Source: Pseudomonadota bacterium (GTDB lineage Bacteria > Myxococcota > JACRCW01 > JAFGSX01). Taken from it: a stretch of 64,000 nucleotides of DNA. Positions 21,907 through 43,828 of this stretch are shown here, piece by piece. Position numbers and translations under genes: made by a program. The DNA is taken from contig JBDRCO010000072.1 in NCBI GenBank assembly GCA_043821645.1, positions 79,962 to 143,961 of the forward strand, given 5' to 3'. Within the stretch, counting starts at the first letter, position 1. Every line of letters begins with the position of its first letter. The notes under the pieces are model-generated. The model was not told where the DNA came from, did no database searches, and saw only the letters and a program-made list of their open reading frames with translations.

Positions 21907-22002
21907 TGCGACCCGGTCCAGGTTGCCTGTATCGTAGCCTGCCTGTTCAGGTGCGCAAAACTGCAGGTGGCGTGTCGTCCACGGAACCGGGAAGCATCGC
22001 TC

Positions 22003-27844: not shown

Positions 27845-27923
27845 TTGCGACGAATTTTGCCCAGGTGCTAGCATGCGGTAGTCTGGTGTTCACACCTCGA
27901 GGTGCCGTGCGGGGACGGCACCA
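27845..27923 (+). promoter_or_regulatory. Candidate sigma-70-type promoter and 5-prime UTR hairpin upstream of first MshEN gene
   Basis: TTGCGA (27845-27850), 18-bp spacer, TAGCAT (27869-27874); then perfect inverted repeat ggtgccgt-gcgggg-acggcacc (27901-27922) 16 nt before the ATG at 27939. Confidence 0.25.
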
Positions 27924-27938
27924 GGTATAGGTTTGTCG

Positions 27939-28712
27939 ATGGATCGACGCATCCGGTTGGGCGAATTACTGCTGCGTGCGGGGCTGATCACCGAGATGCA
28001 GCTCAAGGCCGCCCTCGCGGAGCAGAAGAAGTGGGGAGGACGGCTGGGCACTATCCTCGTCAACATGAATTTCATCTCAGAGGATATCCTGGTCAAGGGC
28101 CTGGCACGCTTGCTCGAAGTGCCCCGGGCGGACTTCGAGAACATGAACGTGCCCGACGTGGTCCTGCAGCGCTTCGACCCCACCGACTGCCAGACCCGTG
28201 GCTACCTCCCGGTGCAGTACAGCCACGCAGAGAAGAAGCTCACCGTGGCATTCGTCGACGTCAACGATCTCGCCCTCGTCGACGAGCTGCGGTTCAAGCA
28301 CGGCCTCAACATTCAGCCCGCCATCACCGGCGAGCACGCCCTGCAGGCCTCGTTGCGCAGTCTTTTTTACAGCGAGGCGCTGGACGCGAGTGTCACCGGC
28401 CAGGAGCCTGGGCTCAAGCTCATCGACAGTCGCGGCGGGACCCTGGTCAAGAACCGCGCGGAGATCTTTGGCAACGAGCCTCCGCCGGCGCCGGTGGCCA
28501 CCACGGGGGTTGAGCGTGCACCCGCCGGTGTGGCCGCGGCCCTGCCGCCCCCCCCGGTGGGCGGGATCCCCGCAGGACTGCTCAACGAGCTCGAGATCGC
28601 GCAGCGGCGCCAGTCCAGAGCCATCAAGACCGTCCTGGAGCTCCTGATCGAGAAGGGAGTGATCTCTCGCGAGGAGTTCGTCGCCAGCGTCAACAAGCGC
28701 AGCGACAGTTAG
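27939..28712 (+). CDS. MshEN (T2SS GspE N-terminal) domain protein, predicted c-di-GMP receptor
   Basis: N-terminal RLGELLLRAGLITEMQLKAALAEQ fits the 24-residue MshEN motif RLGxx(L/I)(L/I)xxG(L/I)(L/I)xxxxLxxxLxxQ; followed by GGRLGTILV...ISEDILVKGLARLL second motif and remainder of a GspE_N fold; Pro/Ala-rich linker and short C-terminal helix. Confidence 0.65.
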   Translation: MDRRIRLGELLLRAGLITEMQLKAALAEQKKWGGRLGTILVNMNFISEDILVKGLARLLEVPRADFENMNVPDVVLQRFDPTDCQTRGYLPVQYSHAEKKLTVAFVDVNDLALVDELRFKHGLNIQPAITGEHALQASLRSLFYSEALDASVTGQEPGLKLIDSRGGTLVKNRAEIFGNEPPPAPVATTGVERAPAGVAAALPPPPVGGIPAGLLNELEIAQRRQSRAIKTVLELLIEKGVISREEFVASVNKRSDS

Positions 28713-28767: not shown

Positions 28768-31700
28768 ATGGCGCAGCGGAAACGTCTCGGCGACTACCTC
28801 ATCGAGGCTGGCATCATCGACCAGTTCCAGCTGCAGTCTGCGCTGGGGCATCAGAGGCAGTGGGGTGGCAAGCTCGGCCGGATCCTGGTCGAGAATCGCT
28901 TCGTCAAGGAAGACGTGATGGTGCGCGCGCTGTCCGAGCTGCTCCGCATCGATGCCGTCGAACTCTCCTTGATGACCATCCACGCCCGGGTCATCGAGCT
29001 GGTGCCCGTGGACATGGCCGAGCGCTTCGGGCTGATCCCGGTGGCACTCAAGCGCGAGAAAGCAGGCGAGTTCGTCTACATCGCCATGAGCGATCCCACC
29101 AATCTCGAGGCCGTCGACGCCATCCAGTTCAAGACCGGCAAGAAGGTCAGGTCGATGATCGCGGGGGACAGCGCGATCGATCGCGCCATCCGCCACTACT
29201 ATTACGGAGAGACCCCCCGCGAGACAGCCAGCACACCGGCCGGACAGGTCCAGTTCTCGGGCCGCGAGATCGCGCTGTCGCCTACCCATACGCCGCCTAC
29301 CCAGGCAGCGGTGCAGGCCCCTGCGGCGGCGGGCCACCCGGCGCTCGTGGTCCCTCCTCCGGCGACCTCGCAAGGTGCCATGCCGACGCCCCCTGTTCAT
29401 CCTTTCGCGGGGCAGCCCCAGCCAGCGCTCGCTCTCCCGGACGACGACGACGACATTCCTCTGATCACGGGCACTCCGGCGGGACCAGCGACGGCAGATG
29501 ACTGGTTCTTGCCTGGTGCACCCGCTCCGGCACAGGCACTCGCAACGGCTGTTTCAGCCCCACCTGTACCTGCGACGCCCGCAGTTCCCCCAGCGCTTCC
29601 CGTCGGGCCGGCCCCGCAGCAGCAGGCACCGGTGATCCTGGATGCGCGAGAATTGACGGCCGTGAATCCGCCCGAGGCGCCATTGCCGAACGCAGCGAGC
29701 GTGCTCTCTCCTTCTCAGGTGCCTCCCCCGACGCCAGTGTCGGCCTCCTCGAGTCTTTTTGGCCCGGCCGGGGGCCTCCTGGGGGGTGAGGATGCTGGAC
29801 CGGGTTTGTCGGCGCCGCGGCAGGATGTGGCATTCGGAACGCTGGAACTCCCGACACCGGGTGCTGGGACGGCTGCGACGAGACCGCCGGCGGCGAGGAC
29901 TCCGCCTGTGCAACCCGCAACCGCAGGTCCGGCCCCTGCAGGTCTGGGGCACGTCGAACCGCCGGACGCTGCCGGCACTCCAGCGGTCCTGGACAGCAAT
30001 CTTCTGCAACCCATCAAGGAACCTGCAGTCGCCAACGCTGTGCTGGGTGAGATGGAGTTTGCTGCCCCTGAAAGCCCGCCGAGCGCATCCACCGCACCGG
30101 GGCTGGAGCCTGGTGTGATCCCGGATCGATTCCCGGCGTCAGCGCCACTTCCGGAGCATCTTCTCGCCGCCTCGGGAATGGCATCCTTCGATCTGGGGCC
30201 CGGTGACGACGATCCGCTCGAATTGGACCTCCCGGGCACACCTGTCGCCACGCCGGGGCCTGCCACCTCCACCTTGACGGTGGCTCCGAACTATGAGGTT
30301 GACCTCGGACCCGAGTCCGCTGCGATTCCCCTCGACGAGGCGACATCTCCGGCCCCGCACTCCAGATCCCCTGTGTCCGACGACGGCAGTGCTGCGGCCA
30401 TGCCCGGGGCGGTCCTCGCCGCGTCGGGACTGGCAGACTTCGAACTCGACGAGGATGGCAGCAGCATCGAGCTCGACTTCGACACCCCGACCCCAGACGA
30501 CGCGCAGTCCGCGACCCCCGCGGATCCTCTGGCGAGCATGCTTCCTGTACAGCACGCGAGCGATGAGCCCCTCGAGAGCCGCACCGAGCCCGAGAGCCCT
30601 GGGGTTGACGACAGCCTGAGTTTCGTCCCCCTCGCTCCTCCCCAGCGTGTCTCCGCCGCGGCCGCCCAAGCTGCGACCATCACCCCGAGTATACCGGTGC
30701 AGGAGAACTCCTCGGCCGCCGAGACAGAGGCAGCGGTCACGGCGGACCCTGTCGACGTGCCGCCCCCGAGCGGCAGGGACCCGTCCGGGTTGGAGCTGGT
30801 CCCTCCGGTGTCCACGGCCTTCTCCTTCGAAGACCTGGATCGGCCCCCCGCCGACGCGGTTCCCCTCGGCACCGGCCCCGACCTCGAGGTGGTTCAAGCC
30901 GAGGAGATTAAGCGGCTGGACGCTCCGAGCCACAGTCCTCAGCTGGAGACGATCCCAGCCCAGGCTGACGATTCACCGGACGCCTCTCTGCGGGAGAAGA
31001 CAGAGACCCCAGCGGCGGTCGAAGATCCGCCCCTGCCAGACCTCCCGATGGAGGTCTTCAGCGATGTCGTCGACGTGGACGCACCGCCAGTGCTGGTCAC
31101 CCCTGCACGTCTGGCGGATCCCGCGGTCGAGACCCCAGCCCCGCCGCTGCCAGAGCGCACAACCGCTCCGGAGGTGGAAGGAGCACAGGCACCTCGACGC
31201 CCGCTGCCGCCAGACCCTGTGGCGGAGGCCTCGCTGGTCGCACTCGAGGACGGAGCCAGCGACGATCTCAGCGACCTCGACTTCTCGCTCGACATCGAGG
31301 ACCCACCTCCACCCCTGGCTGCGCGTGTGCCGAAAGAGCTGCAGGCCACCGAGGAACCCGCGGTACACGAAGGGGCCGCGTCCTCCGAGCAAGCACCTCC
31401 ACTCGAACTCAGCCCCACCACCCCGGCACTCATGACCGGGGGCAGCCCGGATATCGAACCGGGACAGGGCGTGAGCGACGATCTTTTGATCCCCGAAGTG
31501 CCTGCGCAGGACCTGGCCGAGGACACCGAGGACAGCACCGTCACCGATGGTGACGAACACGCGACGATGCACGATCCCGCGTCTGATACCCAGGCACCCC
31601 AGGAGCAAAGCCCGATGTCCGGCCTGGAGCGCACGATCGAAGACGCAGCGCCACAGGACACGGAACCAGCCAGCCCAGGCGTCTCCGCTCCACCCAGCGC

Positions 31701-33006
31701 ACTCACTCCCGTCGACACCCAGACCATGGATCTGGCCCAGGGGGCCTTTGACCCGTCGAACTGGAGTCTGGATGCCTTCCCCGAATCGCTCCCAGCAGCA
31801 TCGGTGGCAGCCCCTGCACCGATCGAGGACAAATTCGCCGAGCCTGCCGGCGCGATGCCGGGCCCGGAGGATCAGGACTTCGAATCCATCGTCGACTTCT
31901 CGGAGTCAGACTTTCCGAGCGAGGCCCAGAGTCAGGACGCCGTGCTGGGAGAGGAGGATGAGGACGTCGATTCCATCATCGATTTCAAGGAATCGGACTC
32001 CCCGCGCGAGGTCCAGGGTCCGGAGACCGCGCCGGGACCGGAAGCGGACGAGTTCGTGTCCATCCTTGACTTCTCGGAGTCGGACTCCCCGCGCGAGGCC
32101 CAGAGTCCGGAGCCCAGTGCTCCCGTCGCTGACGCTCCAGCCTCCGATGGTCCGATGCCGGCGACGATCGGCCGCGTGGAAGGTGAACCGAACGCGGCTT
32201 CCGTCTCCGATGATGAAGAAGCCTCGGACCTGGACCTGGGCGAGGATCTGCCAAACTCCGAGCCCATCTCGCTGCTACCTCCACCACCCAACTTCTCCTC
32301 GGCCTCCGCCCTGCTCTCCGCACTGGACCAGGGAGAGGATCTCCCCGACCTCGAGCAGCCAGACGCCTGGATAGATGCACCGGCGGCACCGATCGCGCGG
32401 GACCCGTCCGAGGCCTCCCTGGCCCGGTTCCACGACGACGCCGACCCGAGCGATGCGCTCGACCTCCCATTTGACGCGGAGCAGGCACCCTCGCCCGCTC
32501 CCAGTGCCACGACAGTCCTGGATGAGCCGCCATCCTCCAGCCACCCGATCGAGGATCTGAGCTCGGCCCTCGACGTGGCTTTCCCGGACCTCACCCTCGA
32601 TCCCCCGACGGAAGACAGCGTGCCACCGTCTCTCCCGGCAGCTGGGAGTCGGCTGCCAGAGGTCGCCCTGGACGCGCTCGGGGATGACATCGACGCGGTC
32701 GCGACGGAATTTCAGCTCGACCCACCGGCGAGCGAGCCCGCGATGACCCTGTCTGGATCTGACGTCGCGGTGCTACCCGAACTCCAGCTCGAGGGCCCGG
32801 AGCTGGCAGACGAATCCTTGACGGCCTCAGCGTCAGGGCCAGCCACCGAGAAGACGACGACACATCCGGTCCTGGCACCCGATGTGGAGGCTCTGCTCGA
32901 CAATATCGATGCCGCCAAGATGCCCGCGGTCCTCAAGCTGCTGCTGGAAAAGGGTCTGCTCTCCCTCGAGGACATCGAGGCGACCCTGGGCAAGAAGAAG
33001 GACTGA
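28768..33006 (+). CDS. Giant MshEN-domain protein with about 1200-aa acidic Pro/Ala/Glu/Asp-rich low-complexity region
   Basis: N-terminal RLGDYLIEAGIIDQFQLQSALGHQ (MshEN motif) and full GspE_N-like domain (about 155 aa); then continuous low-complexity P/A/E/D/S-rich sequence to near the C-terminus, ending in a conserved-looking helix MPAVLKLLLEKGLLSLEDIEATLGKKKD. Confidence 0.65.
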   Translation: MAQRKRLGDYLIEAGIIDQFQLQSALGHQRQWGGKLGRILVENRFVKEDVMVRALSELLRIDAVELSLMTIHARVIELVPVDMAERFGLIPVALKREKAGEFVYIAMSDPTNLEAVDAIQFKTGKKVRSMIAGDSAIDRAIRHYYYGETPRETASTPAGQVQFSGREIALSPTHTPPTQAAVQAPAAAGHPALVVPPPATSQGAMPTPPVHPFAGQPQPALALPDDDDDIPLITGTPAGPATADDWFLPGAPAPAQALATAVSAPPVPATPAVPPALPVGPAPQQQAPVILDARELTAVNPPEAPLPNAASVLSPSQVPPPTPVSASSSLFGPAGGLLGGEDAGPGLSAPRQDVAFGTLELPTPGAGTAATRPPAARTPPVQPATAGPAPAGLGHVEPPDAAGTPAVLDSNLLQPIKEPAVANAVLGEMEFAAPESPPSASTAPGLEPGVIPDRFPASAPLPEHLLAASGMASFDLGPGDDDPLELDLPGTPVATPGPATSTLTVAPNYEVDLGPESAAIPLDEATSPAPHSRSPVSDDGSAAAMPGAVLAASGLADFELDEDGSSIELDFDTPTPDDAQSATPADPLASMLPVQHASDEPLESRTEPESPGVDDSLSFVPLAPPQRVSAAAAQAATITPSIPVQENSSAAETEAAVTADPVDVPPPSGRDPSGLELVPPVSTAFSFEDLDRPPADAVPLGTGPDLEVVQAEEIKRLDAPSHSPQLETIPAQADDSPDASLREKTETPAAVEDPPLPDLPMEVFSDVVDVDAPPVLVTPARLADPAVETPAPPLPERTTAPEVEGAQAPRRPLPPDPVAEASLVALEDGASDDLSDLDFSLDIEDPPPPLAARVPKELQATEEPAVHEGAASSEQAPPLELSPTTPALMTGGSPDIEPGQGVSDDLLIPEVPAQDLAEDTEDSTVTDGDEHATMHDPASDTQAPQEQSPMSGLERTIEDAAPQDTEPASPGVSAPPSALTPVDTQTMDLAQGAFDPSNWSLDAFPESLPAASVAAPAPIEDKFAEPAGAMPGPEDQDFESIVDFSESDFPSEAQSQDAVLGEEDEDVDSIIDFKESDSPREVQGPETAPGPEADEFVSILDFSESDSPREAQSPEPSAPVADAPASDGPMPATIGRVEGEPNAASVSDDEEASDLDLGEDLPNSEPISLLPPPPNFSSASALLSALDQGEDLPDLEQPDAWIDAPAAPIARDPSEASLARFHDDADPSDALDLPFDAEQAPSPAPSATTVLDEPPSSSHPIEDLSSALDVAFPDLTLDPPTEDSVPPSLPAAGSRLPEVALDALGDDIDAVATEFQLDPPASEPAMTLSGSDVAVLPELQLEGPELADESLTASASGPATEKTTTHPVLAPDVEALLDNIDAAKMPAVLKLLLEKGLLSLEDIEATLGKKKD
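31876..32115 (+). repeat. Three tandem about 75-bp coding repeats inside the giant gene
   Basis: Peptide units ESIVDFSESDFPSEAQSQD / DSIIDFKESDSPREVQGPE / VSILDFSESDSPREAQSPE; DNA units share ...gacttctcggagtc(a/g)gact(tt/cc)cc...gaggcccagagtc.... Confidence 0.5.
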
Positions 33007-33040: not shown

Positions 33041-33409
33041 TCAGTCTTCTCCGCGCGCTGCCACGATGGTGTCAATGAGCTGTCGGCTCTCGTCGTCGAG
33101 GCTGAGGAACTCGATACCCATGCCTGGCACCTGATCGGCACTCGCCTGGGCGCTGGCCCACACGACGCGACCGATGCCCTCGATGAGAGGCATCCCATCT
33201 GCCAGGGCAAAGCGCAGGTAGATGGTCGAGCCGATCGCATGCGGCGAATCGGTGCGCAGGAACAGTCCCCCGGCCGACAGGTCGGTCGCGATCTCTTCCA
33301 TGAAGGCTTCGAGGGTCTCGAAGCGGTGCTGAACCAGGAGGTTGAGCGGGACGCGACGGTGGCGACGCCGGTCCTTCGGATCAGACGATGCCCCATGCGG
33401 CTTTGCCAT
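33041..33409 (-). CDS. Single-domain PilZ protein, predicted c-di-GMP receptor
   Basis: C-terminal 122 codons of track ORF 33041..34276; start MAKPHG (ATG 33409); RxxxR motif (DRRRHRRV) followed about 25 aa later by DxSxxG (DLSAGG). Confidence 0.65.
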   Translation of the reverse strand: MAKPHGASSDPKDRRRHRRVPLNLLVQHRFETLEAFMEEIATDLSAGGLFLRTDSPHAIGSTIYLRFALADGMPLIEGIGRVVWASAQASADQVPGMGIEFLSLDDESRQLIDTIVAARGED

Positions 33410-33463
33410 CCCTGACCTCCCTGTGCCTGGCGTGCTGCATGAGTCTAGCGCGAATTCAGTTCG

Positions 33464-33498
33464 GGTAAAAAAGAAGACGCTCGCGCGCCAGGTGCCGG
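33464..33498 (-). terminator. Candidate intrinsic terminator after the metallophosphoesterase-like gene
   Basis: On the minus strand a GC-rich segment (ggcgcgcgagcg) is followed by a U-rich run (ucuucuuuuuua); stem is imperfect. Confidence 0.25.
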
Positions 33499-33500
33499 GC

Positions 33501-34565
33501 TCAGGGCTGCAGGGCCGCACGCTGGGCTGCCACCTCCGGGTCATCGGGAAGCCGGGCATCGAGCTCAAGCAGCCGGTAGCGGTAGCGGGTCTTGCCACGC
33601 TGTCTCTCGAGCCAGGCGGCAGTCTCCGCCTGCTCTGCGCGCGCCTGTGCATCCTCGGGCCTGCGCACGAGTCTCTGCACCGCCAGCTCCCGGCGCTCCC
33701 GCGCGTCCTCGGTGACGGCCCCGCCACGCCAGGTGGCGTCACCCCGAACAGCCCACACCTCGAACTGGACGAGGTAGTGACCTTGCTGGCCGGCGGCCAC
33801 CACGGGCACGCTGCTGCCGTCCCTCTCCGGGTGCTGGCCAGGCCGGGCCTCCTCGCGAGGCAGAAAAGAAACCAGCCCACGCTGGGCGACCAGCACCACC
33901 GACACCTGTGGCAACCCCTGCGCCAGCCTGGCCGCGGCGTCGGAGGACATGCGTGCCACCAGCACCACATGATCACCGGGCCGGGCCACCTTCGCCAGCA
34001 CCCCGCGCAGCGCAGGCAGGGCGGGTGTCGGGTCCAGGCCCGTCGCGGGTGGCCAGTTGGCCGGATCCAGCGCACTGACGACGACGATACGCTGCCCACC
34101 GAGCTGCCGCACCACGTGGCTCTGGTAGGCCGGTCGGCGATCCGCGACCCGCACCAGGTTGCTGGCCACCACGGGGAGCTTGTACGCGCGCACCAGCTCG
34201 TCGAAGCGCGCAAGCCCCAGGCCGAGGTCACCCGGCCCGGGTACCAGCGCATCCAGCTCAGCCCTGTGGAGAGCACTTGCGATCACACGTGCCCGCGCCA
34301 GCGCAAGGACGCCATTGTCCCCTGGCGACGCCGCCTCGTCGAAGAAGCTGTTACCACCCTCGATGTGGAGCACGGGTCCGCGCTCCCGCAGTGCCCGGAT
34401 CGTTCCCACCTGCCTGGCCAGACCGCCAAGCGGACCACTGGGTCAGCCACAGGGGTCGAGGGCCCCCTCCCGGTCGTGGGCATAAAGCACCGTGAAGCTC
34501 ACGGGCTCGTCGTCGAGGTTGGCGGCGCAGAGCAGGACAGACGCCACCACGGCCAGGGCGTGCAT
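33501..34565 (-). pseudogene. Metallophosphoesterase/5-prime-nucleotidase-like gene interrupted by in-frame TGA, catalytic motifs degenerate
   Basis: Signal peptide + FTVLYAHDREGALDPCG (ORF 34443..34706, start ATG 34565) is in the same frame as ORF 33501..34409 but separated by TGA at 34443-34445; downstream sequence continues ...PSGPLGGLARQVGTIRAL...; expected GDxxD/GNHE metal ligands are replaced (LHIEGGNSFF, PGPGDLGLG). Confidence 0.4.
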
Positions 34566-34572
34566 GCTTCGC

Positions 34573-35889
34573 TCAGCCCGTGATCTCGGCGTTGCCTGGG
34601 CGGATGGCCTGCGGCCCGAAGGGGCAGCGTTGGAGCCGGATGTGCTCCTCGAACTCGTGCCGGAACTTCTTGACGAAGGCTCGGGCCGGGATCGCGGCCG
34701 CGTCACCCAGCGGGCAGATGGTGTTGCCGAGGATGTTGGCGGCGACCTCGTCGAACAGCGTGATGTCCTCGCTGCTTCCGTGGCCCTGCTCGACCCGGGT
34801 CGCCATCTTGGCGATCCAGTGCGTGCCCTCGCGGCAGGGCGTGCACTGCCCGCAGGACTCGTGGGCGTAGAAGCGCATCAGCCGGGCGGTCAGGCGCACC
34901 GTGCAGGTACTCTCGTCGAGGACCGCGGCACAGCCTGTGCCCAGCATGGTGCCCGCCTTCGACATGGCATCAAAAGTGAGAGGCACATCGATCTCGTCTG
35001 GAAGCAGCACCGGTGTCGACGAACCGCCGGGGATCACACCCTTGAGCGCCTTGCCATCGCGCAGACCCCCGCCATGCTCGAAGATCAGTTCCTTGAGCGA
35101 GATGCCCTGGGGGAGTTCCCACAGACCGGGCCTCGCCACGTGGCCAGAGGCGCCGTACAGCTTGGTGCCCACACCGCCGTTGACGCCCAGGCTCTTCCAG
35201 GCGTCGGCACCACGCTCGAGGATGTGCGGCACCTGGGCCAGGGTCTCGACGTTATTGACGATGGTGGGCTGGCCAAACACGCCGACCACTGCGGGAAACG
35301 GAGGCTTGAGACGCGGCTTGCCCGGTTTCCCTTCGATGGACTCGATGAGCGCGGTCTCCTCGCCACAGACGTAAGCGCCTGCACCACGATGCACGAAGAC
35401 GTCGAGGTCGAAACCTTTACCCAGGATGTTCTTGCCCAGATAGTGCGCGTCCACGGCCTCGGCGATGGCCTGCTCCAGGCGTCGGGCGATGGCGTGAAAC
35501 TCGCCGCGAATATAGATGTAGGCCGTATGGGCGCCGATGGCATGGCAGGCGATCGCGATGCCCTCGAGCATCATGTGGGGATCGCGGTCCATGATGTAAC
35601 GATCTTTGTATGTGCCCGGCTCACCCTCGTCAGCGTTGATGCACAGGTAGCGGGGACCGGGCTTGTCCTTGGGCACGAAGCTCCACTTCATGCCCGTCGA
35701 GAAGCCGGCGCCGCCCATGCCGCGCAGTCCTGACTTCTTGACCTCCTCGATGAGGTCGCCCGGAGCCATGGCCAGGGCCTTTGCCAGCGACGTGTAGCCG
35801 CCACCCTGCAGGTAGGTCTTGAGCGTGTGGCTCTCGGGCTTGCCCCAGTTGCGCGACAGCAGTCGCTCGCCCATTGCGTACCTCGTCAT
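34573..35889 (-). CDS. nuoF: NADH-quinone oxidoreductase subunit F (51 kDa flavoprotein)
   Basis: Full-length NuoF-like sequence: YLCINADEGEPGTYKDRYIM, GAGAYVCGEETALIESIEGK, 4Fe-4S ligands ESCGQCTPCREG. Confidence 0.8.
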   Translation of the reverse strand: MTRYAMGERLLSRNWGKPESHTLKTYLQGGGYTSLAKALAMAPGDLIEEVKKSGLRGMGGAGFSTGMKWSFVPKDKPGPRYLCINADEGEPGTYKDRYIMDRDPHMMLEGIAIACHAIGAHTAYIYIRGEFHAIARRLEQAIAEAVDAHYLGKNILGKGFDLDVFVHRGAGAYVCGEETALIESIEGKPGKPRLKPPFPAVVGVFGQPTIVNNVETLAQVPHILERGADAWKSLGVNGGVGTKLYGASGHVARPGLWELPQGISLKELIFEHGGGLRDGKALKGVIPGGSSTPVLLPDEIDVPLTFDAMSKAGTMLGTGCAAVLDESTCTVRLTARLMRFYAHESCGQCTPCREGTHWIAKMATRVEQGHGSSEDITLFDEVAANILGNTICPLGDAAAIPARAFVKKFRHEFEEHIRLQRCPFGPQAIRPGNAEITG

Positions 35890-35916: not shown

Positions 35917-36384
35917 TCAGTCGGCGGCCCGCAGCACCGCCGCCACCTTCTCAGGGGTCATGTTCTCGTGAAAATCGCCGTCCACCTGCAGGGCAGGCGC
36001 CGTGCCACAGGAGCCCAGGCACTCGACCTCGTGAACGGTGAAACGGCCGTCGGCGGTGGTCTCTCCCGGCTTGACGCCGAGTTCGTGGCACACGCTGTCG
36101 AGCAGTTCCTGACCGCCGGTGAGGTGGCAGGACAGGTTGGTGCAGATCTCGACCAGGTGCTTTCCGACGGGGTGCTTGTGGTACATGGTGTACCAGGTCG
36201 CCACCTCGCGCACCCGGATCTCGTCGAGCTCGAGCAGCGCCGCCACCTCGCGCACGCCCTCGTCGTCGACCAGCTCGCGCTCACGCTGCACCACGTAAAG
36301 CGCGGGCAGGGTGGCTGCCGCCCGATCCGGGTAGCGTGTCTTGAGGGATGCGATCTCCTTCTTGGATGCCTCGCTCAGAGCCAT
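35917..36384 (-). CDS. nuoE: NADH-quinone oxidoreductase subunit E (24 kDa, 2Fe-2S)
   Basis: Thioredoxin-like 2Fe-2S pattern CTNLSCHLTGG ... ECLGSCGTAP; immediately upstream of nuoF on the same strand. Confidence 0.75.
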   Translation of the reverse strand: MALSEASKKEIASLKTRYPDRAAATLPALYVVQRERELVDDEGVREVAALLELDEIRVREVATWYTMYHKHPVGKHLVEICTNLSCHLTGGQELLDSVCHELGVKPGETTADGRFTVHEVECLGSCGTAPALQVDGDFHENMTPEKVAAVLRAAD

Positions 36385-36640: not shown

Positions 36641-37723
36641 TCAGCCGCGACAGTTGTCGATGATAGTGCTGCCATCGGTGAAGACCTCGAGATCGCAGGT
36701 CTCGGCACTGCCCCCGACGACGTAGGTGGTGATGGTGCCCGTGGCATGGCCGCCGAGGTCGTAGTGCAGCTCGCCCTCTTGCTCCTTGGGCTGGGCCGTG
36801 AGCTCGTCGTCGAACACCCAGGTCTCGCGGTAGGCTCCACTGTATTCGATATCCTGATGCACGGTCAGGGTCGAGCCATCGGCGTAGTTCTGCGTGTAGT
36901 CGCCCTGCCCCGTGCCCGCAGGCGAGAAATCGTACTGGCCCTGGTAGTCCGGAAAGACCTCGGTGCCCAGGTCATCGTACCGGAACTCGTACCTCAAGCT
37001 GCCGTCGGGAAGCGCTGTCAGCTTCTCGCGCACACCCCAGCCGTCGGTGGTGCTGTCTATGGTCTGCTGGATGGTGCCATCGTGCTGCTCGACCTGGACC
37101 AGGGTCCAGTCCGGACTGATCTCGGTGCCCAGGTCATCGTAGCTCACGCTGCCATTGAAGCGCCCCTCGTCGTCGCTCAGGCCCTCGACCACGAACACGT
37201 GGTCCGGGTAGGCGTACACTTCGCGCAGTTCGGTCAGACCGTTGGCCAGCTCTCGGTACTCGCCCTCGAAGCCGCCGCCCTGGCTCGAGCTGCCGGTGTA
37301 GACGGTGGCGCCGGGCTCCACGGGATCTGGTCGGAAGTTGAACTCCCAGGTGACCTCACTACCGTTGCGAAGCTGGTACACGGTGCTGTAGTGACCGCTG
37401 CCGTCGCCGTTATCCACGCCCTGGGTCAGGACCCTGGCCACCTCGCCGCCCTCGGCGCAGGAATACGCCACCTCGAAGGCTCCCGTGGCATCGGTGTAGT
37501 GCTCGTAATCGGTGCTCCACTCCTGGCAGCTATCGGACTGGGCCTCACCCTCGGCGAGAGCCTTGGCCTCGATGGACGGGATGCCCCGGGCTCCGGTTTC
37601 ATTCGGGGGGGTCAGGTGTGGCACCACGGTGCCAAAGGCGTGAACCGCAGGCACACCCACGTCACAGCCGCCTGCGGCGACCGCCACCCATGCCAGCACA
37701 ACCGTCACAGACGCAATGCGCAT
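36641..37723 (-). CDS. Hypothetical lipoprotein
   Basis: Lipobox VAVAAGGCD; acidic, Gly/Tyr/Asp-rich beta-type sequence; no known motif recognised. Confidence 0.4.
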   Translation of the reverse strand: MRIASVTVVLAWVAVAAGGCDVGVPAVHAFGTVVPHLTPPNETGARGIPSIEAKALAEGEAQSDSCQEWSTDYEHYTDATGAFEVAYSCAEGGEVARVLTQGVDNGDGSGHYSTVYQLRNGSEVTWEFNFRPDPVEPGATVYTGSSSQGGGFEGEYRELANGLTELREVYAYPDHVFVVEGLSDDEGRFNGSVSYDDLGTEISPDWTLVQVEQHDGTIQQTIDSTTDGWGVREKLTALPDGSLRYEFRYDDLGTEVFPDYQGQYDFSPAGTGQGDYTQNYADGSTLTVHQDIEYSGAYRETWVFDDELTAQPKEQEGELHYDLGGHATGTITTYVVGGSAETCDLEVFTDGSTIIDNCRG

Positions 37724-37969
37724 GTCCCGTCCGTCGCGAACACCTCGACGCGGTACATGGATGCGAAACCCGGGCCATCGGGATCAGGTCCGAAGGCGCA
37801 GAAGATCCGGGCAGATCGAGAGGTGATCCGGATTTCGCCCATGATAAATGCGGCCGATTTCATCCAGAGTGGCTGATATGCTCCAGCAGCCTGGTGGATC
37901 CGAACCTCCCGCTCCTGCCCCGACAAGCGCGGATCAGGTGCGGCGCGGCTCTGCCGGGCGGAACATGGC

Positions 37970-40039
37970 TTGCTTCGCACGGAGGCGATGACGGATCGCA
38001 TGCCAACCCTGTCCTGCATCCCACGCAGCCGCGGCCTCGCCCGCGCCGCAACCCGTGTCGGGCTGGTGCTGGCCTGCGCGGTGTTCGGGGCGCCCGCCGT
38101 GGCGCAGGAGGCCGATCTGTTCGGGCTCGGCGAGGACGAGGGCGACGACGTGGCCAGTGTCCCCATGGTCATCGGTTTGCGCCCCGCCAGCGCCACCGTG
38201 CTCACCGGCGAGGATCTGCTGCGCCAGGGCTACCGCACCCTGGGCGATGCCCTGGCCGATGTGGTGGGCATCGACCTGCAGCGCACCACCCAGGAAAGGC
38301 GCTACGGCCTGCGCGGTATCCCCGACGGCATCCTGCTGGTCATCGACGGAGTGCCGACCCTGGTCGATGGCGAGCGCGACGTGCTCGACGTGGACGAGGG
38401 CCTGGATCTCAACGATGTGGAGCGGGTCGAGGTGATCCGCGGCCCGTCCTCGGCGGTCCACGGCGTGGCCTCGCTCTCCGGTGTGGTGCAGGTGACCACG
38501 CGTCGCCCCGGGCTGACCAGTGCACGGCTCCGCCTGGGCACCACCCACCTGGGCGAGCGCGAGGTCAGCGCCGACGGCACGGTGCGCTATGACGTGGCCG
38601 CCCTGCGCGCGTCGGTGCTCCACCGCGAAGGGCCCAATGGTGTGTGGCGCCTGGAGAACGTCCCCACACGCTTCATCCGGGTGGGGCGCGCGGTGGTTCC
38701 CTCGACCAAGGAGAACACCGAGATCATTCCCCAGGACGACAGCACCACCCACCTCCGGCTGACCGGCAGCATTGGAGCACTGCAGCTCGACGGGCGTTTC
38801 AGCCGCAGCGACGTGCACACTCCCATCTCCAGCTTCAGCCATGGCCTGCTGTCGACGGGCCCCCAGCAGCGGCAGCTGCGCGAACGCCAGCGCATGCAGC
38901 TGAGCTGGAACCGCCACCTGGGCCCACTGTTCGTCGAGACCTCCGCCTACGGCGCGCGCAACCTGCGCACGGACCTGATCGTGCTGTACCCGTCCCGCGG
39001 GCTGTTTCCGACGGGGGGCAGTGTCACCGTCGACAGTGAGGCCGACACTGCGGGCCTGTTGCTCACCGCGGGCGTGCCTGTGCTGCGCGACCACCGGCTG
39101 CTGCTGACCTGCTTCGGCGACCTGACCCGACAGTGGGCCGTGACCCGCGCGGTGGACCCCGAAGAGGAACGCGTGTACCCGCGACTGGTCGAGTTCGACG
39201 AGCTCACCGGCACGGCCACCGCAGCCTTCGAGTACCAGGGTGACTTCGGAGCGGGCTGGCATCTGACGGCGGGCGCCGCGGTGGAGTGGCGCACCGGCTA
39301 TGGCGCAGCCCTGGTGCCCCGGGCTTCCCTGAGCTACCTGCCGCTGTCCTGGCTCGCCCTGCGCGCATCGTACGCCGAGGGCTCGCGCACCCCGGACCGC
39401 TACGACCTGGCCTTGCTCACCCAGGCCGTGATCGCTGGCCGCGCCATCGGCGCCGGTGTCAATCCCGACCTGCAGCCCGAGCACGCGCGCAGCCTCGAGC
39501 TGGCGTTGCGTCTGGAGCCGTCGGCTCAGCTTCACGCCGAGCTTGACCTGTTTGCCTCACGCCACGAGAACGCCATCGAGCCAGAGATCGTGGGTGCGCG
39601 CATGGTGCCGCAGAACCTGCCTCCCCGGCTGGTCCTCGGCGGCGAGCTGTCGACGGAGATCGAGGCCATCCCGACCCTGCTGCACCTGGGTGCGGGTGTG
39701 GCTCTGGCACGGACCGTCGATGGACCCGCGCTGGAAAACCGCTTGCTGCTGGTGACCGCCACGGCCGAGGTGACACCCCTGACCGGTATCGCGCTGGGTG
39801 CGCGCGGCCGCGCCGGCTGGCGAGAGCAGAGCGATGCCGCATCGGGAACCTCGGGGAACGCCGAGATCTTTGGCTCGTACCGCGCCCTCGACGAGCGGCT
39901 GAGCTTCTCGCTGGTGCTGCGCAACGCCATCGATGGGCAGGACGATTCCCCGGACGTCGCCGTGCTCACCGGGACCTCTGACGTGGCCATCCCCAGCCGC
40001 GGCCGCGTGCTGTTCGTCGCCATCGAGGGCCGCCTGTGA
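37970..40039 (+). CDS. TonB-dependent outer-membrane receptor
   Basis: Signal peptide (VGLVLACAVFGAPAVAQ), plug-domain motifs (VIGLRPASATVLTGEDL, ERVEVIRGPSSAVHGVASLSGVVQVTT), long beta-barrel. Start may be 37988 or 38000. Confidence 0.65.
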   Translation: MLRTEAMTDRMPTLSCIPRSRGLARAATRVGLVLACAVFGAPAVAQEADLFGLGEDEGDDVASVPMVIGLRPASATVLTGEDLLRQGYRTLGDALADVVGIDLQRTTQERRYGLRGIPDGILLVIDGVPTLVDGERDVLDVDEGLDLNDVERVEVIRGPSSAVHGVASLSGVVQVTTRRPGLTSARLRLGTTHLGEREVSADGTVRYDVAALRASVLHREGPNGVWRLENVPTRFIRVGRAVVPSTKENTEIIPQDDSTTHLRLTGSIGALQLDGRFSRSDVHTPISSFSHGLLSTGPQQRQLRERQRMQLSWNRHLGPLFVETSAYGARNLRTDLIVLYPSRGLFPTGGSVTVDSEADTAGLLLTAGVPVLRDHRLLLTCFGDLTRQWAVTRAVDPEEERVYPRLVEFDELTGTATAAFEYQGDFGAGWHLTAGAAVEWRTGYGAALVPRASLSYLPLSWLALRASYAEGSRTPDRYDLALLTQAVIAGRAIGAGVNPDLQPEHARSLELALRLEPSAQLHAELDLFASRHENAIEPEIVGARMVPQNLPPRLVLGGELSTEIEAIPTLLHLGAGVALARTVDGPALENRLLLVTATAEVTPLTGIALGARGRAGWREQSDAASGTSGNAEIFGSYRALDERLSFSLVLRNAIDGQDDSPDVAVLTGTSDVAIPSRGRVLFVAIEGRL

Positions 40040-40911
40040 TGCTGCCCGCCCTGGCCACCGCGCTGTGCCTGGTCTTCGCTGCCGACGTCACCCCGGCCTC
40101 GCAGCCAGCCCCTGCCAGGGGCCCCGTGGTGGTGCTCGCGGATCGCGACACCCGCGCCTACAAGGAGGCGCGCGCAGGCATCGAGGCCGCCGCCGGGCGC
40201 CCGGTGCTGCTGGTGAACAGCAGCGAGACGGAGCGCTGGCATCAGCTCCAGCGCAGCCACGGCGATGCGACCTGGCTCGCCCTGGGACCCCGCGCCACCG
40301 CCCTGCTGAAGAGTTCACCCCACCCGCGCCGGGCCGCGCTGCTGGTGCAGCAGCAGGAGATACCGCCTGGTCTTGCCGCGGTCCCCCTCGAGCTGCCCTA
40401 CGCGCAGCAGGTCGCCTGGCTCAAGACCGGATTTCCGGGAAGGTTGCGCCTGGTGGTGCTGCGCCAGCCCGGTGGTCCGGTCGACGACGAGGCGCTGCGC
40501 CAGGCCGCCCAGGCGGCGGAACTGGATCTGGTCCTGGTCGACGTGCGCCGCAGCGGAGATGCGGTCCCAGCCCTGGAGGGTGCGCTGCGCGATCGTCGCC
40601 ACAGCTCGCTGCTGTGGGTCCTGCCGGATCCCGTTGCGGTGAGCACGGACACAGTGGCGCCGCTGGTGCAGGCCGCGCTCGCAGCGCGCGTACCCGTGGT
40701 CGGTTTCAGCGACTACTTCCTCCGCGTGGGCGCGCTGGGCGCGGTGGTGGTCGACTACCGTGCCGTGGGCTCCCAGGCGTACGGGATGGCGCGGGATCTG
40801 GCGACGAGCACGCAGGCTGCCGCGTCGGCGCACCTGGAGGTGGATGGCCGGCTCGCCGAGCGCCTTGGCATCGCCGTGGACAGTGGTCCCGGTGTCCAGG
40901 TGCGGAGATGA
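40036..40911 (+). CDS. Periplasmic substrate-binding-like protein
   Basis: Signal peptide MMLPALATALCLVFAA; alpha/beta pattern resembling periplasmic binding proteins that accompany two-component sensors; overlaps neighbours by 4 nt on both sides. Confidence 0.4.
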   Translation: MMLPALATALCLVFAADVTPASQPAPARGPVVVLADRDTRAYKEARAGIEAAAGRPVLLVNSSETERWHQLQRSHGDATWLALGPRATALLKSSPHPRRAALLVQQQEIPPGLAAVPLELPYAQQVAWLKTGFPGRLRLVVLRQPGGPVDDEALRQAAQAAELDLVLVDVRRSGDAVPALEGALRDRRHSSLLWVLPDPVAVSTDTVAPLVQAALAARVPVVGFSDYFLRVGALGAVVVDYRAVGSQAYGMARDLATSTQAAASAHLEVDGRLAERLGIAVDSGPGVQVRR

Positions 40912-42440
40912 ACACACCTCGTCGCTGGCGTCTGGGCCTGCGCGAACGGCTGGTGGCCGCGGTGCTGGGCGTGCTCACGGCACTGCTCGCCATCACCGCC
41001 GCGCTCGTCGTCATGCGCTCCGAGCTGGCCCTGGTCGAGGCCCAGCAGACGCGCTTCGCCGCACTCACGCGTCAGCTCGCGGACTCGCTGCGCTACGCCG
41101 TGCTGGCGCAGAGTCCCGCGCTCATGGAGCCCTCCCTCGACGTGTTCGCGCGCAGCCCCGACCTGGTGCAGGTGGAGGTGCGCGACGAGCGGCGTGCCTT
41201 GCTGGCGGTGAAGAGTGGCCCCCAGGGCCCCGTGGGTGATGGCGTCGAGCGCAGTGACGTGGTGACCGTGGAAGTTCCCGTCAACACCCGCGAGCAGGCG
41301 CCCGGCGATGAAGACGATGAGCTCGCGATCTTTGGTCTGGGCAGCGAGGGCACGCGCCTGGTGGGCTACGTGCAGGCGGTGTTCTCCACCGAGGCCACGG
41401 CACGCATCCAGGACAGGCTGCGGCGCGAGATCCTGGCGGCCTTCACGATCCTGGGCGGGCTGGGATTGCTCGCCGTGTTTGGGCTGGCGTCGTCCGTGGT
41501 GCGACGCACGCGCTTCCTGGCGCAGGCGGCGGCTCGGGTGGCTGAGGGCGACCTCGGGGTGCGCGTCGAGGACCCGGCAAGCGACGAGCTGGCAGCTCTG
41601 GCGCAGGACTTCAACGCCATGACCACCGCCCTGGCCGAGCAGCACGTCGCCCTCGACCAGGCCGCCTCGCAGCTCGCCGAACAGGAAGCGCTGAGTGCCA
41701 TTGGACGTGCCACCGCAGTCATCGCCCACGAGCTCAAGAACCCCCTGGGCATCCTGCTCGGAGCTGCCCAGATCGCGGCCAATGACGAGCGTCCCGAGAC
41801 CGCGCGGCGCAAGGCTGCGGGCATCATCGTCGAGGAGGTGCAGCGGCTCGAGCGAACCCTCAACGAGCTGCTTCACTACGCCCGTCCGCGTCCGGCCAGC
41901 CGCATGCCGGTCGACGTCCTGGAGCTGTGCCGGCGCAGCGTGCAGCGCGTGCGTTCGCCGGGCGGCCCCGCCGAGGGCGCGTCCATCGACGTGAGCGGCG
42001 AGAGCTGCACGGTGCTCGCCGACGAGCAGCAGCTGGCGCAGATCCTGCTCAACTTGCTGACCAACGCCGCCCAGGCCGGTGCCAAGCACATCGCGATCGC
42101 CGTGCAGCGCGCGGCAAGCCGCGTGCGTGTCGAGGTGCAGGACGACGGACCCGGGATCGCCCCGAGTGTGCAGGATCAGCTGTTCCGACCCTTCGTCACC
42201 ACCAAGCAGCGGGGAGCGGGCCTGGGCCTGGCTGGCTCGCGGCGCATGGCACGGGAGAACGCAGGGGACCTGCGACACGAGCCGGGCGAACAGGGCGCGC
42301 GCTTCGTGCTGGAACTCGAGATGGCCGCTCCAGGGAGCCCGCCACGACCGTCGGAACCACACACAGAGGCGTCAGAGCCAGGGCTCGACACCGCGGGGGC
42401 GGCGCACGAACGCCCTGACAAGAAAGAGGTCCAGGGATGA
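40908..42440 (+). CDS. Sensor histidine kinase (two TM, HAMP, HisKA, HATPase)
   Basis: Track ORF 39933..42440; start MNTPRRWRL (ATG 40908, ATGA overlap); H-box TAVIAHELKNPLGIL, N-box LLNLLTNAAQAG, G-boxes DDGPGI / GAGLGLAGS. Confidence 0.65.
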   Translation: MNTPRRWRLGLRERLVAAVLGVLTALLAITAALVVMRSELALVEAQQTRFAALTRQLADSLRYAVLAQSPALMEPSLDVFARSPDLVQVEVRDERRALLAVKSGPQGPVGDGVERSDVVTVEVPVNTREQAPGDEDDELAIFGLGSEGTRLVGYVQAVFSTEATARIQDRLRREILAAFTILGGLGLLAVFGLASSVVRRTRFLAQAAARVAEGDLGVRVEDPASDELAALAQDFNAMTTALAEQHVALDQAASQLAEQEALSAIGRATAVIAHELKNPLGILLGAAQIAANDERPETARRKAAGIIVEEVQRLERTLNELLHYARPRPASRMPVDVLELCRRSVQRVRSPGGPAEGASIDVSGESCTVLADEQQLAQILLNLLTNAAQAGAKHIAIAVQRAASRVRVEVQDDGPGIAPSVQDQLFRPFVTTKQRGAGLGLAGSRRMARENAGDLRHEPGEQGARFVLELEMAAPGSPPRPSEPHTEASEPGLDTAGAAHERPDKKEVQG

Positions 42441-43828
42441 CACACCGCGTGCTGCTGGTCGAGGACGAGCAGAACTACCGGCAGGTGATCGCCATGATGA
42501 TCGCCGATCTCGATGTGACGCTCATCGAGGCGGGCGATGGCCGCGAGGCTCTGGAGAAGCTGGACAGTCACGAGGTCGACCTCATCATCACCGACCTCAA
42601 CATGCCGCGCATGGACGGCATGGCCTTGCTGGCAGAGCTCAAGACCCGCCAGCTCAACCTGCCTGTCGTCGTCATCACGGCCTACGGCACGGTGGACTCG
42701 GCGGTGGAGGCCATGCGTCTGGGAGCCATCGACTACCTGCAAAAACCCTTCGAAGAAGCGCGCCTGCGCCTGACCTTGCAACGTGTGCTGCAGGTCAGTG
42801 ACCTGATGGCCGAGAACAGGCGGCTGCGCGACGCCGTGGAAAAGAAGTTCGACTTCTCACAGATCATCGGTGAGTCGGCGGCCATGGTCGCGGCGCTGAG
42901 GGTGGCCGGCCAGGTTGCGGGCACCGACGCCACGGTGCTGGTCGAAGGCGAGAGCGGCACTGGCAAGGAACTGGTGGCCCGGGCCATTCATTTCAACAGC
43001 CGGCGGGCCCGCAAACCCTTCGTGGCCGTGAACTGCGCGGCCCTGCCCGATACCTTGCTCGAGGCGGAACTCTTCGGCAGCGAGGTTGGCGCCTACACCG
43101 GAGCCACGCGCCGCCGCCGCGGCCGGGTCGAGCTGGCCCAGGGGGGAACCCTGTTCCTCGACGAGATAGGCGATATGCCGGCCATGCTGCAGGCCAAGAT
43201 CCTGCGCCTGATCCAGGAGAAGACCTACACACCGCTGGGCGGCGAGCAGGAAGCCCGCGCCGACGTGCGCTTCGTGCTGGCGACCCACCGCGACCTCAAA
43301 TCCCTGGTGGCCGAGGGCCGCTTTCGCGAGGACCTGTACTACCGGGTGAGCGGACTGCCCGTGCGTCTACCGCCCTTGAGGCAACGCGGTGACGACGTGG
43401 TGTTGCTCGCCGAGGCCCTGATCAAGCAAGCCTGCCAGAACCTGGACCGCCCTCCCCTGGAGCTGACCCCGGCCGCGCGCGATGCCCTGCGAGGCTACGG
43501 TTTCCCGGGCAACGTGCGCGAGCTGGCCAATCTGGTGGAGCGCGCCACCTTGCTGAGCGAAGGCACCACCATCGACGCGACGGACCTGGAACTCGACGAC
43601 AACCCCGCCTCGGCACCGGCAGCGGGATCGGTCCCCGGAGCCTCGACCACGGCGGTCAGCGGTGTGTTCACCCTGCCCGAGCAGGGCGTGTCTCTCGAGG
43701 AACTCGAGCGCAGCATGGTCAAGCAAGCCCTCGATCGCGCTGCGGGCAACAAGAGCCGCGCGGCCAAGTTGCTGGGCCTGTCCCGCGCCACCCTGCGCTA
43801 CCGCATCGAGAAGTTCGGGCTCGAGTGA
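42437..43828 (+). CDS. Sigma-54-dependent response regulator (NtrC family: receiver + AAA+ + HTH)
   Basis: Receiver ([14 protein letters not shown]), Walker A GESGTGKE, sigma-54 interaction motif [13 protein letters not shown], arginine finger region, C-terminal Fis-type HTH ([24 protein letters not shown]). Confidence 0.8.

Follow-up and report, generated by a model that had tools for sequence, protein, structure and literature searches.

Introduction

UshA-like proteins of COG0737 that carry a Cys-x-selenocysteine (CxU) motif have been regarded as a predicted bacterial selenoprotein family since at least the ocean-metagenome survey of 2008 (PMC2398784). The family is attributed to Zhang and Gladyshev (PMC2398784, PMC9312934, PMC13188914) and also appears in recent reviews with the NCBIfam models NF041198 and NF049981 (PMC9312934, PMC13188914). 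In the three papers found to pair "UshA-like" with selenocysteine (Sec), the family is listed as predicted, without an experimental function (PMC2398784, PMC9312934, PMC13188914). In this study, we analyzed a gene at positions 33501-34565, minus strand, of a 64,000-nucleotide stretch of contig JBDRCO010000072.1 (assembly GCA_043821645.1, positions 79,962 to 143,961), the whole of which is called the window hereafter and supplies all coordinates. An earlier note on this DNA had read the gene as a metallophosphoesterase-like paralogue, decaying or catalytically dead, whereas our analysis indicates that it is very probably an intact, mis-annotated UshA-like selenoprotein gene whose in-frame TGA encodes selenocysteine.

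Two further described systems bear on this gene. The selenocysteine insertion sequence (SECIS) of Escherichia coli fdhF has an upper stem-loop of nucleotides 15-31, located 11 nt from the UGA, in which U17, G23 and U24 are critical (PMC8659212), and MccSep (ExtKL, GSU2937-2936) of Geobacter is a multiheme selenocysteine polysulfide reductase (PMC13510729).

Results

Reading Frame and Gene Model

The minus strand from 34565 to 33501 forms one frame of 354 codons plus a TGA stop, 355 in all, with the TGA at 34445-34443 as the sole internal stop, so that the two halves recognized in the earlier note do belong to a single frame. The translation reads MHALAVVASVLLCAANLDDEPVSFTVLYAHDREGALDPCG before the TGA and PSGPLGGLARQVGTIRALRERGPVLHIEGGNSFF directly after it, continuing through PGPGDLGLG to a C-terminal AALQP. 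The residues after the TGA begin PSGPLGGLARQ, and the complete motif is DPCG-TGA-PSGPLGGLAR. The signal peptide proposed earlier was retained, judged by eye, and the N-termini of the orthologues are also hydrophobic with small residues at the end, that of locus L001 being MRALPLLALGWLAANP.

The program-made list of open reading frames (ORFs) opens the 302-aa downstream ORF at an in-frame GTG at 34409-34407; the earlier note placed the GTG one codon off, at 34412. The public gene call ABIJ09_15830 (33501-34373) is a 290-aa "hypothetical protein" that starts at an internal codon after the UGA. Most database relatives, among them P0002, P0005, P0007 and P0011 and many entries beginning "M-GGLSK...", are truncated in the same way, and gene calls that start just past the motif are the signature of a gene caller halted by UGA. 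The shorter product that had been considered possible is best described as a gene-calling artefact, lacking the signal peptide, the first beta-strand and the Cys-x-Cys/Sec motif that is invariant in the family. The UshA-like family is systematically under-called in databases, and since public gene calls start after the UGA, the selenoprotein is invisible to annotation-based surveys.

Two terminator-like patterns with T-rich tails lie inside the coding sequence (CDS) on the minus strand, at 34490-34504 and 33872-33887. Four such patterns were counted in the scanned region against 1.2 ± 1.3 expected, and the matches inside the CDS are probably due to chance.

Evidence for Selenocysteine at the TGA

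The protein matched NF041198 ("UshA_like_PCGU, UshA-like (seleno)protein") with E = 1.7e-34, and the TGA of the window falls within the namesake P-C-G-U motif. The read-through form gave no Pfam match at E ≤ 10, hence none to Metallophos, and NCBIfam alone recognized the family. With the 313 residues that follow the TGA as the query, an exhaustive HMMER search returned 599 relatives at E ≤ 1e-3, and the full-length proteins among the 150 of these that were listed contain [P]C[GAS]C-x4-5-GGLAR. The profile alignment has Cys at position 41, where the window gene has the TGA, in 84 of 90 homologues and at position 39 in 84 of 91, and both positions are invariant in alignment A3.

The TGA was observed at the identical codon in L001 (65% identity), L003 (44%), L004 (38%) and L005 (33%), which are independent assemblies recovered by protein similarity, and the upstream 40 codons, covering the signal peptide and the first strand, are conserved in frame in all four. 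The same TGA was also found in L024 and in more than 130 further loci, with PC[GA]-TGA present in at least 133 unique Sec-form sequences. Its recurrence at the same codon in every orthologue examined makes it a feature far beyond chance. In addition, TGA ends nuoF 7 nt upstream as well as the selenoprotein gene itself, which shows that the code is standard and that TGA is not reassigned genome-wide. Together, the conserved TGA codon, the in-frame upstream codons and the TGA stops elsewhere leave next to no room for a sequence error, a pseudogene or a reassigned codon. Insertion of selenium at the UGA of this gene is therefore predicted with high confidence, on comparative sequence grounds.

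The SECIS Hairpin

With the U of the UGA numbered as 1, the predicted core stem pairs +15 to +21 (34431-34425) with +28 to +34 (34418-34412), as GCUUGGC with GCCAGGC, around an apical loop GGUCUG at +22 to +27 (34424-34419) that contains G23 and U24. An extra CC/GG closure with a bulged A was also predicted, giving the fold CC-GCUUGGC-GGUCUG-GCCAGGC-A-GG, and the hairpin starts 11 nt after the UGA. Of the 36 nt following the TGA, 35 are identical between the window and L001, as against about 80% in the flanks.

A 21-mer SECIS pattern, CCGCTTGGCGGTCTNGCCAGG, from which the TGA was omitted, was scanned over 185,579 species genomes and produced 12 matches. Eleven belong to the UshA-like family, in Myxococcota, Thermodesulfobacteriota and Latescibacterota, and all 11 have a TGA exactly 9 nt upstream, as the stop in PC[GA]-stop. 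The twelfth, at 1791-1811 of L006, a metagenome-assembled genome (MAG) of Bryobacteraceae, encodes ...QPLGGLARV followed by a stop; as it lies outside the family and has no upstream TGA, it was treated as a chance match and not as a SECIS.

At least 120 stretches came from a scan of metagenomes whose pattern specified nothing beyond PC[GA]-TGA, the loop and the three inner pairs; together with the earlier loci, they amount to the 133 unique Sec-form sequences used for all covariation counts. The four outer stem pairs, which are N in the pattern, were paired in 85.7% of cells, compared with 66% after column shuffling (maximum 70.5%) and 20-49% with slid partners. Pair 18-31 is U-A in 86 sequences, G-C in 40 and something else in seven (Fisher 6.5e-31). 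At the codon level, the outer stem combines Leu-CTT with Arg-AGG in 59 sequences, Leu-CTG with Arg-CGG in 24, Ser-TCT with Arg-AGA in 10, Ala-GCG with Arg-CGC in five and Thr-ACG with Arg-CGT in two. The stem covaries through codon choice, and protein-level selection therefore offers no explanation for it. Three codons that are infrequent in the genes of the window all occur in the hairpin: CTT, at 3.8% of Leu codons, AGG, at 9.8% of those for Arg, and GGT, at 17.5% of those for Gly. In the Cys-form relatives L002 and L138, the same LGGLAR is spelled by different codons and the GGUCU loop is absent (n = 2). The family-specific SECIS consensus is well supported, and it could retrieve more members straight from DNA.

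L008, L009, L010, L012 and L015, which come from Thermodesulfobacteriota and unclassified MAGs, each contain two UshA-like paralogues, separated by about 1 kb in L010 and L012, the loci in which both could be positioned. Every paralogue carries a UGA and a SECIS of its own, the two reading PCA-UGA-PKEPLGGLARLGG and PCG-UGA-HKHPLGGLARKA, so that one of them carries Cys-Ala-Sec instead of Cys-Gly-Sec.

Lost Metal Ligands, Fold and Active Site

The ligand motifs were placed by aligning the family profile to solved 5'-nucleotidases; against the Protein Data Bank (PDB), the profile matched 2z1a first (2.9e-34), followed by CD73, UshA and SoxB. LHIEGGNSFF and PGPGDLGLG fall on the GD and GNHE motifs, as the earlier note had supposed, and its suspicion that the ligands are not intact was borne out, since the canonical residue survives at just one of the seven ligand positions. 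In the TND-x-H motif, which reads [DN]-x-x-G-E-h-E-P-C-G-C in the family, D31 is kept and the His is replaced by E33. The GD motif is GD or GN in the family, and its Asp is N72 in the window. GNHEFD has become PG-x-x-D-L-A-x-G, with P111 for the Asn and G112 for the catalytic His. The motif IV His, which is H in 53 and Q in 32 of 149 family sequences, is R205, and in motif V (GHxH), where the first His is H in 41 and D in 30 of 149, the window has Q228 for the first His and G230 for the second ligand (His or Gln). Judged from these residues, the protein cannot be a conventional dimetal phosphoesterase.

Meanwhile, 85-95% or more of the family share G34, P38, C39, C/U41, R51, G110, D113 and N136. 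Ligand loss across the whole family, together with strongly conserved new residues, points to a re-purposed active site and not to decay. As read from the alignments, the loss is an old, family-wide remodelling around the loop after motif I.

An AlphaFold2 (AF2) model of residues 42-354, the part after the UGA, had a predicted local distance difference test (pLDDT) score of 94.9 and a predicted TM-score (pTM) of 0.92. Its best Foldseek matches in the PDB were SoxB 2wde (2.9e-13, TM 0.67, root-mean-square deviation 3.5 Å) and CD73 (4e-13); SoxB, CD73 and UshA ranged from E = 1e-13 to 1e-10, and the model has the alpha/beta sandwich fold of their N-domains. The same N-domain was obtained for P0009, a full-length Cys-form relative (pLDDT 83.6). 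The C-terminal substrate-binding domain of 5'-nucleotidases is absent from the window protein, as no Pfam match was found and the modelled C-terminus is a short helical segment.

Family Membership and the Heme-Less Clade

The window protein combines the UshA/5'-nucleotidase homology and the CxU motif by which the family is defined in the literature (PMC2398784, PMC13188914). Its NF041198 score is 119.3 bits, below the curated cut-off of 275, and the match covers only positions 11-235 of the 519 in the profile, whereas true members score 288-358 bits, with P0041 (358) and P0015 (288) spanning the whole profile. Positions of about 330-519 represent a C-terminal tetraheme (4 x CxxCH) cytochrome c554-like domain, and P0009, P0011, P0003 and P0154 match this region with four CxxCH motifs. 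The window protein stops at residue 354 without any CxxCH, ending in a short helical segment where P0009 continues into a linker helix and the hemes, and no ORF with more than one CxxCH occurs anywhere in the 64-kb window. The gene thus departs from the NCBIfam equivalog in two of its defining features, as it neither reaches the score nor encodes the heme domain. What is new here is the heme-less variant, while the predicted UshA-like selenoprotein family itself is known.

For the other models, SoxB (TIGR04486) gave 14.5 bits against a cut-off of 550; its dimanganese ligands are lost and only the fold is similar. A metagenome scan with the single protein as the query found no relatives.

Genomic Neighbourhood

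The features of the locus are shown in Table 1. In the heme-less clade (the window, L001, L003, L004 and L024), the gene always lies directly after nuoE-nuoF. The orthologous nuoF neighbours carry PF01512/PF10589, a 75-79% identical NuoF adjoins the gene in L003, L004 and L024, and in L001 the 3' end of a nuoF-like ORF lies 10 nt before the ATG. A PilZ gene lies 3' of the UshA-like gene in the window and in L001, L004, L005, L016 and L099, among them two heme-bearing relatives. The terminator-like hairpin and the separate ribosome-binding site of the PilZ gene make nuoE-nuoF-selenoprotein the likely transcription unit, and these three genes are probably cotranscribed, as far as can be predicted from their arrangement.

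Table 1. Features of the UshA-like selenoprotein locus and its neighbours in the window.
Feature	Position	Strand	Basis
Complete CDS of the predicted UshA-like selenoprotein	33501..34565	-	Translation; NCBIfam NF041198 E = 1.7e-34; frame kept across the TGA in L001, L003, L004, L005
Codon 41, UGA, predicted Sec	34445-34443	-	CxU motif
Cys39-Gly40-Sec41 (TGT GGC TGA), predicted CxU motif	34443..34451	-	Homologue alignments, Sec-form loci
Putative signal peptide, about residues 1-16, MHALAVVASVLLCAAN	34518..34565	-	Boundary by eye; cleavage probably after Ala-Ala
5'-nucleotidase/SoxB-type alpha/beta domain, about residues 22-265, dimetal site lost	33771..34502	-	Profile against PDB, AF2, Foldseek
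C-terminal helical hairpin, strand, helix, about residues 283-352	33510..33719	-	Model secondary structure; P0009 alignment
Predicted SECIS hairpin	34409..34433	-	Fold, conservation, covariation, fdhF-like position
nuoF (NADH dehydrogenase 51-kDa subunit)	34573..35889	-	TGA stop 7 nt before the selenoprotein ATG
nuoE (24-kDa subunit)	35917..36384	-	ORF list; PF01257 neighbours in L003, L004; tblastn
PilZ-domain gene, own GGGAGG ribosome-binding site	33041..33412	-	Pfam PF07238, 9.9e-15
Terminator-like hairpin and T-run, 12 nt past the stop	33466..33489	-	Consensus scan, pattern match only

Clustering of the neighbouring ORFs at 68 loci revealed no universal partner gene, and the neighbours were clade-specific only, comprising nuoEF, PilZ, a rhodanese-MauE/DoxX protein (six loci) and a multiheme cytochrome (four loci). 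The rhodanese-MauE/DoxX membrane protein (PF00581 with PF07291/PF07681) is encoded about 1.1 kb upstream of the UGA on the same strand, in L129 and five other metagenome loci that are marine and low in guanine and cytosine (GC). It is a possible sulfur- or selenium-transfer or disulfide-forming partner.

Several other genes of the window were also observed. Two MshEN proteins (27882-28709 and 28768-33006, plus strand) stand side by side with the PilZ gene (33041-33412, minus strand), all with domains that bind cyclic di-GMP, and one of the MshEN proteins, at 1412 aa, consists almost entirely of Pro/Ala/Asp/Glu-rich low-complexity sequence after its N-terminal domain. Upstream of nuoE, the minus strand at 36641-37723 encodes a 360-aa secreted protein or putative lipoprotein (MRIASVTVVLAWVAVAAGGC...) with no Pfam match, a 49%-identical copy of which occupies the same position in L004. 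A TonB-dependent receptor (Plug and beta-barrel) at 37877-40036 on the plus strand is followed by a weak ABC substrate-binding-like ORF at 39982-40908. A Ser/Thr kinase (20386-23061) and a sigma-54 response regulator (42419-43825) are present as well, and their combination with PilZ and MshEN is one that we take to be associated with Myxococcota. The closer relatives that come from named genomes (L011, L016 and L017) bear the label Myxococcota or "Deltaproteobacteria", and the label "Pseudomonadota" on the record looks doubtful.

Discussion

Strength of the Assignment and Alternative Explanations

Several observations count against the assignment to this family, against the SECIS or against a link with the neighbours, and they should be read alongside the evidence above. 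The NF041198 score remains under the curated cut-off. The folding energy of the hairpin is, by itself, unexceptional at 70% GC (z = -1.1 and -0.19), and as it is uninformative at that composition, the case for the SECIS rests on the comparative data. Because the search patterns set the loop and the inner 3 bp, part of the invariance seen there in the large set reflects ascertainment, and these bases have independent support only in the five loci recovered through protein homology. The 64-kb window contains no tRNA gene (ARAGORN) and no Rfam match, and selA, selB and selD were not searched for among its ORFs. Furthermore, the linkage to nuoEF may reflect no more than synteny in a single lineage.

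Among the alternatives, the one that survives best, though we consider it somewhat unlikely, keeps the selenocysteine and changes its role. In this explanation, Cys39 and Sec41, together with the acidic or amide residues that survive (D31, E33, E69, N72 and D113), would form a new mononuclear metal site where the dimetal centre used to be, with Sec as a ligand as in formate dehydrogenase or [NiFeSe] hydrogenase. The alignment places the CxU loop directly after motif I, at the former metal site, and oxygen ligands are retained at 69 (D/E in 125 of 139), 72 (D/N in 117 of 138) and 113 (D/E in 147 of 147), for which a purely thiol/selenol redox site would have no obvious need. However, in the clade of the window, non-ligands (P111, R205, Q228 and G230) replace three of four ligands at metal site 2 and two at metal site 1, and electron transfer to a redox-active dichalcogenide fits both the spacing of CxU/CxC and the multiheme domains fused in the relatives. 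The product is most likely a periplasmic Cys-Gly-Sec redox or metal-binding protein, as predicted from its sequence and its relatives.

The explanation put forward in the earlier note, a decaying or dead paralogue disabled by the TGA, whose only product, if any, would be the cytoplasmic 302-aa protein started at the internal GTG or that of the annotated 290-aa ORF, is highly improbable. It would account for the lost canonical ligands, for an automatic annotation limited to the downstream ORF and for the missing Pfam Metallophos match, but it conflicts with a TGA and 40 upstream codons kept in frame in orthologues down to 33% identity, with a covarying SECIS and with an AF2 model of very high confidence; a short product would also be deprived of the two most conserved residues of the family, besides the first beta-strand and the signal peptide. 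The TGA is better explained as a conserved Sec codon, and the ligand loss extends to the whole family. Lastly, a sequencing or assembly error, conceivable for a single metagenome-assembled sequence, and a TGA that codes for a standard amino acid throughout the genome can both be set aside as negligible, given that the same TGA is shared by five orthologues assembled independently and by more than 130 family loci, that nuoF (7 nt upstream) and the gene itself stop at TGA, and that the genome has 65-73% GC, unlike the lineages known to reassign TGA, which are low in GC.

Proposed Mechanism

For the selenoprotein, translation would begin at the ATG at 34565, and when the ribosome reaches the UGA at codon 41, the hairpin would recruit SelB carrying Sec-tRNA(Sec), so that selenocysteine is inserted. 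A mature protein of about 338 residues would then be exported to the periplasm, with the conserved Cys39-Gly40-Sec41 predicted to lie in the loop after the first strand, the usual place of the DxH metal ligands. There, Cys39 and Sec41 might form a selenenylsulfide redox couple, or else ligate a metal at a new site, and act on a periplasmic substrate that possibly contains a chalcogen. In the heme-bearing relatives, the fused hemes would feed electrons to the Cys/Sec site; as these hemes are missing in the clade of the window, a separate electron carrier would be needed, or the protein may itself act as the carrier. NuoEF is cytoplasmic and the selenoprotein is expected to be periplasmic, which leaves no direct contact, and the linkage may therefore be regulatory or merely syntenic.

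By analogy, the structural proximity to SoxB, the rhodanese-MauE/DoxX neighbour and the precedent of MccSep are weak leads towards chalcogen chemistry. As a speculative proposal, which we hold only tentatively, the UshA-like CxU proteins might constitute a class of periplasmic selenoenzymes yet to be characterized, in which a phosphoesterase scaffold bears a Cys-Gly-Sec loop in place of the dimetal centre and is usually wired to four c-type hemes. The nuoEF-linked clade would then be a stand-alone catalytic or carrier module with a separate donor, acting perhaps on polysulfide, thiosulfate or selenium compounds.

Significance

Recognition of this gene corrects the gene model and extends a family hitherto confined to bioinformatic lists by a clade that is heme-less and linked to nuoEF and PilZ. 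The family represents a metalloenzyme fold re-purposed around Cys-x-Sec. The short form is the simplest construct with which to probe the Cys-Gly-Sec site free of the four hemes. A selenoprotein specialist would not be surprised by the result, and the gene model, the SECIS with its synonymous covariation and the heme-less clade are modest but useful additions.

Comparison with Known Systems

The heme-plus-Sec architecture of the full-length UshA-like relatives has a single experimentally characterized analogue, MccSep, a periplasmic protein that combines a Cys and a Sec with electron transfer from c-type hemes. Unlike the window protein, which is heme-free, it belongs to an unrelated fold and family (NF040886), and its Cys ligates heme iron. 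Identity with MccSep was rejected, as the families differ and nucleotidase-like proteins are unmentioned in PMC13510729.

The predicted SECIS resembles that of E. coli fdhF in its 11-nt spacing, its apical G23 and U24, its GGUC loop sequence and its location inside the coding region. It differs in having a loop of 6 nt (GGUCUN), in a U17 that is predicted to form a wobble pair with G32 instead of being bulged, and in a stem sequence peculiar to the UshA-like family.

With SoxB and the 5'-nucleotidases (UshA, CD73 and 2z1a of T. thermophilus), all of which are periplasmic or extracellular, the window protein shares the fold. It departs from them in that six of the seven metal ligands and the catalytic His are replaced, the C-terminal substrate-binding domain is lacking, and Cys-x-Sec, which they do not have, is predicted to be present. 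NF049981 (UshA-like selenoprotein family 2, CxxU, 262 positions) likewise describes a short, cytochrome-less, UshA-like selenoprotein, but the motif of the window protein is CxU and not CxxU (PMC13188914), and its score was 27.8 bits against a cut-off of 140, over the first 86 positions only.

Finally, the window protein has in common with NF041198 the 5'-nucleotidase-like N-domain, the P-C-G-U/C after motif I followed by x4 and GGLAR, the SECIS sequence (CCGCUUGGCGGUCUNGCCAGG), a putative signal peptide and the family-wide loss of GNHE. It is set apart from that model by the absence of the tetraheme domain, by the loss of the motif IV and V His, which are kept in a third to a half of the family, and by the clade-specific arrangement of nuoE, nuoF, the selenoprotein gene and PilZ.

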